Shown in pieces: positions 57,001 through 60,000 of a stretch of 64,000 bases of DNA. Each line of letters starts with the position of its first letter. Position 1 is the stretch's first letter. Where the stretch lies: the NCBI RefSeq assembly GCF_057098645.1, contig NZ_CM169472.1; one strand, given 5' to 3'. The position numbers were made by a program.

Positions 57001-60000
57001 TAATTTACATACGGTTGATCCTGCGGGTTATGGCCCTATGTGTAATGGGTATCTGTCTGTATTGGATGATTTTTCAGATTAAGATCAGGCGGCAAGATTG
57101 ATGATAAAACATGGCAATTTAGCCGATTGATTTACGGGGGCTTTTCAGATTAGCCCTGACGATCACTTACAGTTCAGACGTTTACCCATCTTGCTTTCGC
57201 TTATATACTCGTGTCTTTGCTACAGCAACCAGACGGATTTCATGTACCAACCTGTCGCTCTATTTATTGGCCTGCGTTACATGCGTGGGCGTGCAGCGGA
57301 TCGCTTCGGTCGTTTCGTCTCCTGGCTTTCTACCATCGGCATTACCCTCGGGGTGATGGCGCTGGTCACAGTATTGTCAGTGATGAACGGCTTTGAACGC
57401 GAGCTGCAAAACAACATCCTTGGCCTGATGCCACAGGCAATTCTCTCTTCTGAGCATGGCTCTCTTAACCCGCAGCAACTCCCGGAAACGGCAGTCAAAC
57501 TGGACGGCGTTAATCGCGTCGCACCTATTACTACCGGTGATGTGGTACTGCAAAGCGCGCGCAGCGTGGCGGTCGGGGTGATGCTCGGTATCGACCCGGC
57601 GCAAAAAGATCCACTAACGCCGTATCTGGTCAATGTGAAACAAACTGACCTCGAGCCGGGGAAATATAATGTCATCCTCGGCGAACAACTTGCCTCACAG
57701 CTAGGCGTTAATCGCGGTGATCAAATCCGCATGATGGTACCATCTGCCAGCCAGTTCACGCCGATGGGGCGTATTCCAAGTCAGCGCCTGTTCAATGTGA
57801 TTGGCACTTTCGCCGCCAACAGTGAAGTCGATGGCAATGAAATGCTGGTGAATATTGAGGATGCCTCGCGTCTGATGCGTTATCCGGCAGGCAATATTAC
57901 CGGCTGGCGTTTGTGGCTGGATGAGCCGCTGAAAGTCGACTCATTAAGTCAGCAAAAACTGCCTGAAGGCAGCAAATGGCAGGACTGGCGTGATCGTAAA
58001 GGCGAGTTGTTCCAGGCCGTACGCATGGAAAAAAATATGATGGGTTTACTGCTGAGCCTGATTGTCGCCGTTGCGGCGTTTAACATTATTACCTCACTAG
58101 GGCTGATGGTAATGGAGAAGCAGGGCGAAGTAGCGATCCTGCAAACGCAAGGCTTAACTCCGCGACAAATCATGATGGTCTTTATGGTGCAAGGGGCCAG
58201 CGCCGGGATTATCGGTGCGATCCTCGGAGCGGCGCTTGGCGCCCTGCTTGCCAGCCAGTTAAATAATCTGATGCCGATAATCGGCGTCCTGCTTGATGGC
58301 GCGGCGCTGCCGGTCGCTATCGAACCTTTACAGGTCATTGTTATTGCGCTGGTGGCGATGGCTATCGCGCTGCTGTCTACGCTTTACCCTTCATGGCGCG
58401 CTGCCGCCACTCAACCCGCTGAGGCTTTACGTTATGAATAAGATCCTGTTGCAATGCGACAACCTGTGCAAACGCTATCAGGAAGGCAGTGTGCAAACCG
58501 ATGTGCTGCACAATGTCAGTTTCAGCGTCGGCGAAGGTGAAATGATGGCGATCGTCGGTAGCTCTGGTTCCGGTAAAAGTACCTTGCTGCACCTGCTGGG
58601 CGGGCTGGATACGCCAACCTCCGGCGATGTGATTTTTAATGGTCAGCCAATGAGCAAACTGTCGTCGGCAGCGAAAGCAGAACTGCGCAACCAGAAGCTG
58701 GGCTTTATTTATCAGTTTCACCACCTGCTGCCGGATTTTACCGCCCTGGAAAACGTGGCTATGCCGCTGCTGATTGCCAAGAAAAAGCCCGCTGAAATCA
58801 ACAGCCGTGCACTTGAGATGTTAAAAGCGGTGGGGCTGGATCATCGTGCGAATCACCGCCCGTCAGAGCTTTCTGGCGGCGAACGCCAGCGTGTGGCGAT
58901 TGCCCGTGCGCTGGTCAATAACCCGCGTCTGGTACTGGCGGATGAACCAACCGGTAACCTTGACGCACGTAACGCCGACAGCATCTTCCAGTTGCTTGGA
59001 GAATTGAATCGCTTGCAGGGCACCGCCTTCCTGGTGGTTACTCACGACCTGCAACTGGCGAAACGTATGAGCCGCCAACTGGAGATGCGTGATGGTCGTC
59101 TGACGGCGGAACTGAGCCTGATGGGGGCGGAGTAATGGCGATGCCTTTATCGTTATTGATTGGCCTGCGTTTTAGCCGCGGACGGCGACGCGGCGGCATG
59201 GTGTCGCTGATCTCCGTCATTTCTACCATTGGCATTGCCCTTGGCGTGGCGGTATTGATCGTCGGCTTAAGCGCGATGAACGGCTTTGAACGCGAACTGA
59301 ATAACCGCATTCTGGCGGTGGTGCCGCATGGCGAAATAGAGGCGGTGGATCAACCGTGGACTAACTGGCAGGAAGCACTGGATAACGTGCAAAAAGTGCC
59401 AGGTATTGCCGCCGCTGCGCCGTATATCAATTTCACCGGGCTGGTAGAAAGTGGTGCCAATCTGCGCGCAATCCAGGTGAAGGGCGTTAACCCGCAACAG
59501 GAACAGCGTCTGAGCGCATTACCCTCGTTTGTTCAGGGGGATGCCTGGCGCAATTTTAAAGCGGGCGAACAGCAAATTATCATCGGCAAAGGCGTGGCGG
59601 ATGCGCTGAAAGTGAAGCAGGGCGATTGGGTGTCGATCATGATCCCCAACTCGAATCCTGAGCATAAACTGATGCAGCCAAAACGTGTGCGTTTGCACGT
59701 TGCCGGTATTTTGCAGTTGAGTGGTCAACTCGATCACAGTTTTGCCATGATCCCGCTGGCGGATGCCCAACAATATCTTGATATGGGTTCCAGCGTGTCA
59801 GGTATTGCCCTTAAAATGACGGATGTTTTCAACGCCAATAAGCTGGTACGCGATGCGGGTGAAGTGACCAACAGCTATGTTTATATTAAAAGCTGGATTG
59901 GTACTTACGGCTATATGTATCGCGATATCCAGATGATCCGCGCCATTATGTATCTGGCGATGGTACTGGTGATTGGCGTGGCCTGTTTCAACATCGTCTC

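Follow-up and report, generated by a model that had tools for sequence, protein, structure and literature searches.

The ycfT-lolC intergenic region of E. coli carries two exact copies of the 11-mer TTTTCAGATTA, which, judged from comparison with related species, are the local form of a short motif common to many related bacteria and most likely serve as docking sites for a regulator. Our preferred reading, to which we assign a probability of about 45%, is that one conserved cis-element, TTTT-N-R-G-A-W-W-A, takes the form of the two 11-mers in E. coli and would be bound by one putative protein. In the window, i.e., the whole 64-kb stretch of DNA analysed, TTTTCAGATTA occurs exactly twice, at 57071-57081 and 57142-57152, both on the plus strand and 71 bp apart (start to start), and the degenerate motif TTTTNRGAWWA is found at these two sites only. 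Both copies lie inside the 261-bp spacer between the start codon of ycfT (56980, minus strand) and the ATG of lolC (57242). An earlier note on this DNA had reported two identical 11-mers between these genes, and this is confirmed, with coordinates 2 nt off its approximate values. The features of the region are as follows.

55907-56980, minus strand: ycfT, acyltransferase-family inner membrane protein (RefSeq annotation)
57018-57046, minus strand: predicted ycfT core promoter (-35 ATTACA at 57046-57041, 17-nt spacer, -10 CAGGAT at 57023-57018)
57045-57064, no strand assigned: left arm of an inverted repeat, ATGGGTATCTGTCTGTATTG, a conserved block overlapping and just upstream of the predicted ycfT -35
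57071-57081, plus strand: copy 1 of TTTTCAGATTA, exact match; conserved form T-T-T-T-[C/A]-[A/G]-G-A-[T/A]-[A/T]-A
57071-57089, plus strand: extended copy-1 element TTTTMRGAWAARGNKSAGG, from a logo anchored on copy 1
57102-57124, minus strand: predicted CyuR site GGcTAAATTGCcAtgtTTTATCa, from a published motif scan only, between the copies
57127-57133, plus strand: conserved TTGATTT block, ~9 nt upstream of copy 2 (identity 0.7-0.9 in 48 species)
57142-57152, plus strand: copy 2 of TTTTCAGATTA, exact match, invariant in E. coli, at -77 to -67 of the mapped lolC start
57170-57189, no strand assigned: right arm of the inverted repeat, CAGTTCAGACGTTTACCCAT, overlapping the lolC -35
57181-57209, plus strand: lolC core promoter from a promoter scan (-35 TTTACC at 57181-57186, 17-nt spacer, -10 TATACT at 57204-57209)
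57219, plus strand: published lolC transcription start, 23-nt 5' UTR
57242-58441, plus strand: lolC, first gene of lolCDE (RefSeq annotation)

Taken by itself, the E. coli repeat statistic is not convincing for a reader scanning 64 kb, because the window holds nine comparable repeats: counting exact direct repeats that are 11 nt or longer and no more than 150 bp apart, there are 9, against 2.0 +/- 1.4 in shuffles. Dinucleotide shuffling of the spacer produced any exact 11-mer direct repeat in 48 of 5000 trials (~1%). A larger duplication around TTTTCAGATTA was considered and rejected, as beyond the 11-mer the sequences compared at offset 71 agree at 24% of positions, no better than random. It is from cross-species conservation that the repeat pair is seen to be more than chance.

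The comparison comprised 48 species from more than 15 genera that have a ycfT-lolC spacer. At copy 1, column counts were T44, T47, T48, T46, C36/A12 and A26/G22 for positions 1-6 and G48, A48, T27/A21, A37/T10 and A42 for positions 7-11; T3, G7 and A8 are each present in 48/48 species, variation is confined to positions 5, 6, 9 and 10, and TTTTNRGAWWA is matched at this position in 38 of the 48 ycfT-bearing spacers. Conservation continues to the right (A47 at 57087, G41 at 57088 and G42 at 57089 in the 48-species logo), and the extended element TTTTMRGAWAARGNKSAGG, which in E. coli contains TCAGA and TCAGG 11 bp apart, stays identical between two E. coli alleles that are otherwise deeply diverged. 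In most genera copy 1 and the ycfT ATG are 88-95 bp apart; one clade carries a 10-bp insertion, equal to one helical turn, and there the distance is 101-103 bp. In E. albertii, where ycfT has been lost, copy 1 has decayed to TTTTCCGCTAA while copy 2 is intact. Because of this near-fixed distance and the decay in ycfT-less E. albertii, copy 1 is, on comparative grounds, anchored to ycfT and not to lolC.

Copy 2 shows TTTTNRGAWWA with at most one mismatch in ~25 of the 48 species, plus E. albertii and Salmonella; the latter has no ycfT and keeps the copy as TTTTCAGAATA. The full motif is found at this position in Escherichia, Citrobacter, Salmonella, Enterobacter, Lelliottia, Leclercia and Silvania, and in the genera keeping it the distance to the lolC start codon is 100-102 bp. 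It is absent in about half of the ycfT-bearing genera (among them Kosakonia, Pseudescherichia, Buttiauxella and Cedecea), where the T-run alone is left, and in Escherichia sp. MOD1-EC7003 the invariant G of copy 2 is mutated. Across the 48 spacers we counted 60 matches to TTTTNRGAWWA versus 0.5 in shuffles, all but one on the plus strand at the two expected positions. Lack of conservation, which had been named beforehand as the outcome speaking against a regulatory role, is not what we observed: both copies are kept in related species in the form TTTTNRGAWWA. Within E. coli, the two alleles of the spacer diverge by ~14%, and both copies stand out in it as identical stretches. In E. cloacae, E. 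soli, E. quasihormaechei and Lelliottia the copies are again identical to each other, using another word, TTTTCGGAAAA, twice; the motif form of Enterobacter and Lelliottia is a perfect palindrome, TTTTC-N-GAAAA. Concerted evolution of the copies was not statistically established, as E. coli and Enterobacter are fully concordant and Citrobacter, Silvania and Leclercia disagree (positions 9-10). The spacing between the copies is variable (64, 71 or 76 bp) and, therefore, each copy appears to be tied to its own promoter. A natural deletion variant, the short spacer of the Trabulsiella type, has a single copy. The copy-1 footprint runs 8 nt further (..CAGG), an extension that copy 2 does not have.

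The lolC start site was taken from Kim et al. 2012 (NC_000913.2 position 1174627, 16 reads; PMC3415461, supplementary file 2), and the upstream sequence printed there matches 57169-57219 of the window, which places the centre of copy 2 at -72. TTTAC and TCGCTTATATACTCG of the lolC promoter are invariant in 20 Enterobacteriaceae. On the minus strand, the alignment revealed (A/G)TTACA and CAnnAT at fixed spacing, conserved in most of the 48 species; from the promoter predicted here, which a simple promoter scan did not call, we infer a ycfT start at ~57011, corresponding to position ~1175196 of K-12 NC_000913.3, and copy 1 would then span about -60 to -70, with its centre at about -65. Several further elements populate the spacer. 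The TTGATTT block is also kept in genera without ycfT (Raoultella, Atlantibacter, Superficieibacter). The two arms of the long-range inverted repeat (20 nt, 75% complementary) each contain a TACCCAT heptamer that is not conserved in Enterobacter. The CyuR site, listed in Table 1 of PMC11408624 with a sequence matching the minus strand here, was evaluated against the CyuR (DecR) operator, a 23-bp imperfect palindrome GAAwAAATTGTxGxxATTTsyCC, and rejected as an account of the repeat: the published predicted site lies between the copies without overlapping them, in a stretch poorly conserved across genera.

According to our preferred reading, the conserved element would be placed once upstream of each divergent promoter. 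Copy 1 would belong to ycfT, as the left part of a putative footprint of ~19 bp about 91 bp from the ycfT start codon, and copy 2 to lolC, at -77 to -67 of the mapped start. One sequence-specific DNA-binding protein, probably a dimer, may occupy both sites, placed as is usual for upstream 'class I'-like activators; stress induction of ycfT would then run through copy 1, and copy 2 might tune or insulate an otherwise constitutive lolCDE promoter. Some observations run against this reading. As direct repeats, the copies face their promoters oppositely, which suits a near-palindromic site only, and the motif at copy 2 is missing in about half of the genera, such that the two positions could be independent elements.

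The geometry resembles that of class I-type sites in divergent promoter regions, such as those of CRP near -61.5 or -71.5: the centres of the copies fall at -72 from the mapped lolC start (copy 2) and at about -65 from the predicted ycfT start (copy 1), and the 10-bp insertion clade shifts copy 1 by one helical turn. Such placement is in itself no proof of activation, and the motif differs from the CRP site (TGTGA-N6-TCACA). A T-rich tract upstream of a sigma-70 promoter is also reminiscent of the UP element, the A/T-rich alpha-CTD site at -38 to -59. We rejected this assignment, as copy 2 at -77 to -67 falls outside that range, and the invariant G-A dinucleotide argues for base-specific recognition. 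The Enterobacter form TTTTC-N-GAAAA equals the core of the CodY box of Gram-positive bacteria, a 15-bp palindrome AATTTTCWGAAAATT; the E. coli copies have a degenerate right half instead, GATTA in place of GAAAA. To our knowledge, CodY is confined to low-G+C Gram-positive bacteria and absent from Enterobacteriaceae, and the likeness is one of words only. In a weak check of the sequence by eye against consensuses, no site for sigma-E, sigma-28, sigma-54, CpxR, PhoP, BasR, IHF, Fis or NarL fitted at a conserved position.

RcsB, possibly with a partner, is the leading candidate for the binding protein, and only a candidate. It takes this place only because TCAGA, present in both copies, fits the half-site TNRGA of the RcsB box and because ycfT, judging by published expression data, seems to behave as an Rcs-dependent gene. 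The RcsB box, a 14-bp pseudo-palindrome TN(G/A)GAN4TC(T/C)NA, is the site of the Rcs envelope-stress response regulator (PMC7913699). In further agreement, copy 1 varies among the 48 species where the half-site has N and R, while T, G and A are fixed. A complete box was nevertheless rejected: copy 1 (TCAGATTAAGATCA) and copy 2 (TCAGATTAGCCCTG) each agree with 6 of the box's 8 specified positions and fit it in the left half only, and RcsB stays only a candidate because both copies match just half of the box. The E. coli copies carry no second half-site TC(T/C)NA after 4 nt, the critical C being absent, and their conserved T-tract lies outside the RcsB box. Scanning of the 48 orthologous spacers gave no conserved match to the box at 7/8 or better. 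The window does contain a canonical RcsB box elsewhere: positions 49293-49306 carry one, upstream of ycfJ, a gene that depends strongly on Rcs.

Published expression data bear on the two genes differently. A LolCDE inhibitor, which also activates Rcs, Cpx and RpoS, induced ycfT 9.3- and 16.5-fold, and neither RNA-seq nor qPCR showed a change in lolCDE mRNA (PMC5105897). In O157:H7, ycfT was down 3.25-fold in a strain with disrupted rcsB (PMC5343319). The gene belongs to a set of just four for which a specific response to LolCDE inhibition has been reported (Lorenz 2016). A motif shared among these four genes was sought and found not significant against background: ybhP-clsB, katE and ecnB each have a one-mismatch motif match 75-105 bp upstream of the start codon, and one-mismatch matches occur at a background density of 0.47 per kb in all sequence and of 1.8 per kb where the DNA is AT-rich. 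Literature searches found no study of the lolC promoter or its regulator and no E. coli report of lolCDE stress regulation. The searchable literature contained no ChIP-exo, SELEX or RegulonDB-type evidence for either copy; a ChIP-exo supplement that we examined mentions neither ycfT nor lolC, and the exact repeat words appear in papers as unrelated primers only.

A tentative but serious possibility is that two unrelated elements share a word, copy 1 being part of a ~19-bp ycfT site and copy 2 part of the lolC promoter architecture, namely a T-tract that together with its flank and the TTGATTT block may bend DNA or contact the alpha subunit of RNA polymerase; the 11/11 identity in E. coli would then be a coincidence on a shared 8-nt core. 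This would be in line with conservation of the T-run of copy 2 alone in half of the genera, with retention of TTGATTT followed by the T-run even where ycfT is missing, with the absence of the right half (..CAGG) of the copy-1 footprint from copy 2, with the lack of similarity beyond the 11-mer and the unconserved copy spacing, and with exact 11-mer repeats being common in the window. It accords poorly with the finding that seven genera keep the full copy-2 pattern while the 6 nt to its left and the nucleotides to its right vary freely, and that Enterobacter recreates exact 11/11 identity using a different word; moreover, copy 2 is too far upstream for a classical UP element. With rather low probability, a single regulator acting on a short palindromic operator (TTTTC-N-GAAAA, degenerate in E. 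coli) ahead of both divergent promoters might couple LolCDE, the essential lipoprotein exporter, to YcfT. If true, Lol status would have a circuit of its own at this locus, separate from the canonical Rcs, Cpx and sigma-E boxes.

The earlier note had read the spaced repeats as regulator sites upstream of lolCDE, an operon said to respond to envelope stress. Its general idea of regulator sites gains support from conservation; control of lolCDE by an envelope-stress regulator through both copies is improbable. In its favour, both copies are conserved and located upstream of lolC, and copy 2 occupies a position like that of a class I site; copy 2 also persists in E. albertii and Salmonella, neither of which has ycfT. 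Yet in the only direct data found, lolCDE transcripts do not rise under LolCDE inhibition (PMC5105897), which leaves the proposed stress response of lolCDE unsupported; copy 1 follows ycfT and decays upon its loss, and the spacer has neither a canonical RcsB box nor, on reading it through, a CpxR-type GTAAA-N5-GTAAA repeat. Still further down in probability, the repeat could act as RNA, within a long ycfT 5' leader, with the copies as repeated protein- or sRNA-binding sites or as loops of the folded leader. A minus-strand start at 57192 (6 reads, 212-nt leader; Kim et al. 2012, PMC3415461) provides a basis for this notion, as do the folding z-score of -2.86 for a 218-nt leader, inverted-repeat arms that close a domain holding both copies, and the position of copy 2 as the loop of a GGGCU/AGCCC hairpin. 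That start, however, is very weak and shares the lolC -10 region, as is typical of divergent promoter noise; the second E. coli allele does not keep the stem of the copy-2 hairpin (GGGGGC -> CGGTAC), compensatory changes are missing from the arms (in Enterobacter, as read from the aligned arms, TTTACGC stands opposite GGGTAA), and 56500-57700 gave no Rfam match at E <= 1 on either strand. Pure chance, with neither copy functional, is hardly credible: the window does hold nine comparable exact repeats where whole-window shuffles give about two, but each of the two positions is a phylogenetic footprint, none of the 48 species departs from G7 or A8 in copy 1, and the count of 60 motif matches far exceeds the expected 0.5.

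The lolCDE operon is essential and a drug target, and the conserved candidate elements described here may bear on the control of its promoter. Its divergent neighbour in many Enterobacteriaceae, ycfT, has been proposed as a reporter for LolCDE inhibitors. A conserved element with two invariant bases would offer a handle for the design of point mutants and for finding the factor that senses Lol failure; if the element should turn out to be merely architectural, the lolC promoter and the probable ycfT promoter would still be mapped.

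Across the 64 kb of the window, there are exactly two occurrences of the 11-mer TTTTCAGATTA (copies 1 and 2), 71 bp apart and each on the plus strand. The 261-bp spacer that holds them separates ycfT, annotated as encoding an inner membrane protein of the acyltransferase family, from lolC, the first gene of lolCDE, and the arrangement is as follows:

55907-56980, minus strand, ycfT
57046-57041 and 57023-57018, minus strand, ATTACA and CAGGAT, predicted ycfT core promoter of E. coli
57071-57081, plus strand, copy 1
57142-57152, plus strand, copy 2
57181-57209, sigma-70-like lolC promoter TTTACC-17-TATACT, the only such site in the promoter scan
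57242, plus strand, lolC ATG

The two identical 11-mers described in the earlier note are thus exact, although its coordinates were 2 nt too high. A larger duplication is excluded by the flanks, whose identity at offset 71 falls to 24%, the random level, beyond the 11-mer; the pair is an isolated repeated word. Of 5000 dinucleotide-shuffled spacers, only 48 held an exact 11-mer direct repeat of any word; in the window as a whole, exact direct repeats of 11 nt or more within 150 bp number 9, versus 2.0 +/- 1.4 after shuffling. Since a 64-kb scan always yields some such repeats, the E. coli repeat statistic alone decides nothing.

With one genome taken for each species that has LolC, the survey covered 80 loci, 47 of them with a ycfT homologue divergent from lolC and spacers of 192-354 bp; together with the window, these provided 48 aligned spacers. 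Base counts in the copy-1 columns were T44, T47, T48, T46, C36/A12, A26/G22, G48, A48, T27/A21, A37/T10 and A42, and the footprint extends on to A47 G41 G42 at 57087-57089. The degenerate form TTTTNRGAWWA has 60 matches in the 48 spacers versus 0.5 in shuffles, all but one on the plus strand at the two expected positions, and marks only the copy 1 and copy 2 sites in the window. By motif positions and spacer lengths, the distance between copy 1 and the ycfT ATG is 88-95 bp in most genera and 101-103 bp in a clade with a 10-bp insertion. At the copy-2 position, about 25 of the 48 spacers have the motif with no more than one mismatch (Escherichia, Citrobacter, Enterobacter, Lelliottia, Leclercia, Silvania, Pseudenterobacter), always 100-102 bp from the lolC ATG in motif-bearing spacers; in Kosakonia, Pseudescherichia, Buttiauxella and Cedecea it is reduced to a T-run. 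The 11-mer repeat is real, and both copies, rather than lacking conservation in related species, are conserved footprints.

Within E. coli, the spacer was found in 5425 of 5426 complete genomes, in two deep allele classes (3600 genomes 95-99% and 1789 genomes 80-90% identical to the window). The divergent allele (ATCC 25922, strain 550) is heavily substituted in the spacer centre and identical to the window from copy 2 through to lolC; its copy 1 carries one base change (TTTTCAGATAA) within the conserved block ATTTTTCAGAT[T/A]AAGATCAGGC. Allele differences are concentrated at 57021-57141 of the spacer (56981-57241). The LolC protein accession is the same in K-12, ATCC 25922 and strain 550, and for YcfT the identity between E. 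coli lineages is only 91-97%. Five of the 5426 spacer matches in the genome collection sit on plasmid-labelled records, though the spacer is chromosomal.

As to the promoters, TTTAC and TCGCTTATATACTCG of the lolC promoter are invariant in 20 Enterobacteriaceae. The published lolC start (NC_000913.2 position 1174627; Kim et al. 2012, PMC3415461, supplementary file 2) is placed at 57219 by its printed sequence, which puts copy 2 at -77 to -67 relative to it and copy 1 farther upstream, at -148 to -138. The same study assigned a weak minus-strand start (6 reads, window 57192) to ycfT with a 212-nt leader. These opposite-strand starts are 27 bp apart, and the TATATA region at 57202-57209, including the lolC -10, is common to both, which gives a bidirectional -10 arrangement. 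The long ycfT leader folds better than shuffles (z = -2.86); the alignment showed no compensatory change, the second E. coli allele does not keep the copy-2 hairpin, and an Rfam scan of the spacer region gave no match. On the minus strand, the alignment holds a conserved (A/G)TTACA, 17 nt, then CAnnAT, and the corresponding ATTACA/CAGGAT of E. coli is probably the core promoter of ycfT; transcription would then begin near 57011, with copy 1 at about -60 to -70. A long-range inverted repeat of 20 nt, 75% complementary (arms 57045-57064, ATGGGTATCTGTCTGTATTG, and 57170-57189, CAGTTCAGACGTTTACCCAT), brackets both 11-mers; its arms are conserved across genera, and because the right one overlaps the lolC -35 and the left one lies at the predicted ycfT -35, the divergent promoters look like mirror images. 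Enterobacteriaceae, also genera that lack ycfT, share a conserved TTGATTT block (57127-57133) some 9 nt upstream of copy 2; by eye, it could act in Citrobacter gillenii, not in E. coli, as the -35 of a second promoter (TTGATT-16-AATAAT).

Upon LolCDE inhibition, lolCDE mRNA does not rise (Lorenz et al. 2016, PMC5105897), and in the literature we found no report that envelope stress alters lolCDE transcription in E. coli; the envelope-stress control of lolCDE invoked in the earlier note thus finds no support. Its proposal that spaced repeats may mark regulator sites gains from the conservation of both copies but loses this specific lolCDE link. In the inhibition study, ycfT was up 9.3- and 16.5-fold, and the authors singled out ycfT and three other genes as responding specifically to the LolCDE inhibitor (PMC5105897). 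Upstream of these other three, the motif is matched only with one mismatch, within background. In an O157:H7 isolate with disrupted rcsB, ycfT was down 3.25-fold, alongside bdm, ycfJ and yjbEFGH (PMC5343319). A log2 change of 7.9 on cysteine has also been reported for ycfT, with a CyuR site from a motif scan only (PMC11408624); this site maps to 57102-57124, between the copies, in a stretch poorly conserved across genera.

Regarding the candidate factor, the left half of the RcsB box, TN(G/A)GAN4TC(T/C)NA (PMC7913699), is present in both copies as TCAGA, and the copy-1 positions that vary across the 48 species are the N and R positions of the box. However, the right half is missing from both copies, each matching 6 of 8 specified positions, and a conserved match of at least 7/8 was found nowhere in the spacer across the 48 species. 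For these reasons, RcsB is a lead and not an assignment. By contrast, a perfect RcsB box, TCAGACTCCTCCGA (49293-49306), lies about 80-120 bp upstream of ORF 49375-49953, which we take to be ycfJ by gene order; ycfJ ranks among the strongest responders to Lol inhibition, with induction (PMC5105897), and among the genes most reduced in the rcsB mutant (PMC5343319). Three more perfect consensus matches occur in the window, at 7177-7190 (TAAGACTTTTCCCA), 12015-12028 (TAAGAATATTCCCA) and 15448-15461 (TTGGAAGCGTCCAA). In its Enterobacter form, the motif is similar to the core of the CodY box known from Gram-positive bacteria; CodY itself is not expected in enterobacteria. The shared-motif test also brought up a perfect 18-bp palindrome, TTACGGAAAATTCCGTAA, in the E. 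coli K-12 ybhP-ybhQ spacer (comparison locus L086, about 8560-8590). The ybhP-clsB-ybhN genes begin with ybhP, about 75 bp downstream of the palindrome.

A spacing of 71 bp between the copies is shared by E. coli and Citrobacter, one of 64 bp by Enterobacter and Lelliottia, and one of 76 bp by Silvania and Leclercia; this variation ties each copy to its own gene and not to the other copy. ycfT itself is patchy across Enterobacteriaceae (loci L005, L020, L025, L027, L029, L050 and others), being absent from E. albertii, Escherichia sp. MOD1-EC7003, Salmonella diarizonae, Klebsiella, Raoultella, Kluyvera and others; in these, the lolC promoter region borders directly on the region upstream of mfd. 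Without ycfT, E. albertii has copy 1 decayed to TTTTCCGCTAA and copy 2 intact, S. diarizonae keeps copy 2 as TTTTCAGAATA, and MOD1-EC7003 has TTTTCACATTA at the copy-2 position. Trabulsiella odontotermitis and Enterobacter sp. CC120223-11 (loci L039 and L061, about 1805-2000) have spacers of 192-195 bp, about 66-70 bp shorter, which amount to a natural deletion of the inter-copy segment and hold a single motif copy; its distance is about 91 bp to the ycfT ATG and 104 bp to the lolC ATG. The main rival to a shared protein is that the copies are unrelated elements with an 8-nt core in common, which we consider possible but less likely. In E. cloacae, E. soli, E. quasihormaechei and Lelliottia, the copies are again mutually identical, with a different palindromic word, TTTTCGGAAAA, as sites for one protein might be. 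The pair is a new example of an ordinary type of feature; we tentatively read it, with a probability of about 0.45, as two sites for one putative DNA-binding protein, each serving its own promoter, of which copy 1 would most likely mediate the stress induction of ycfT.
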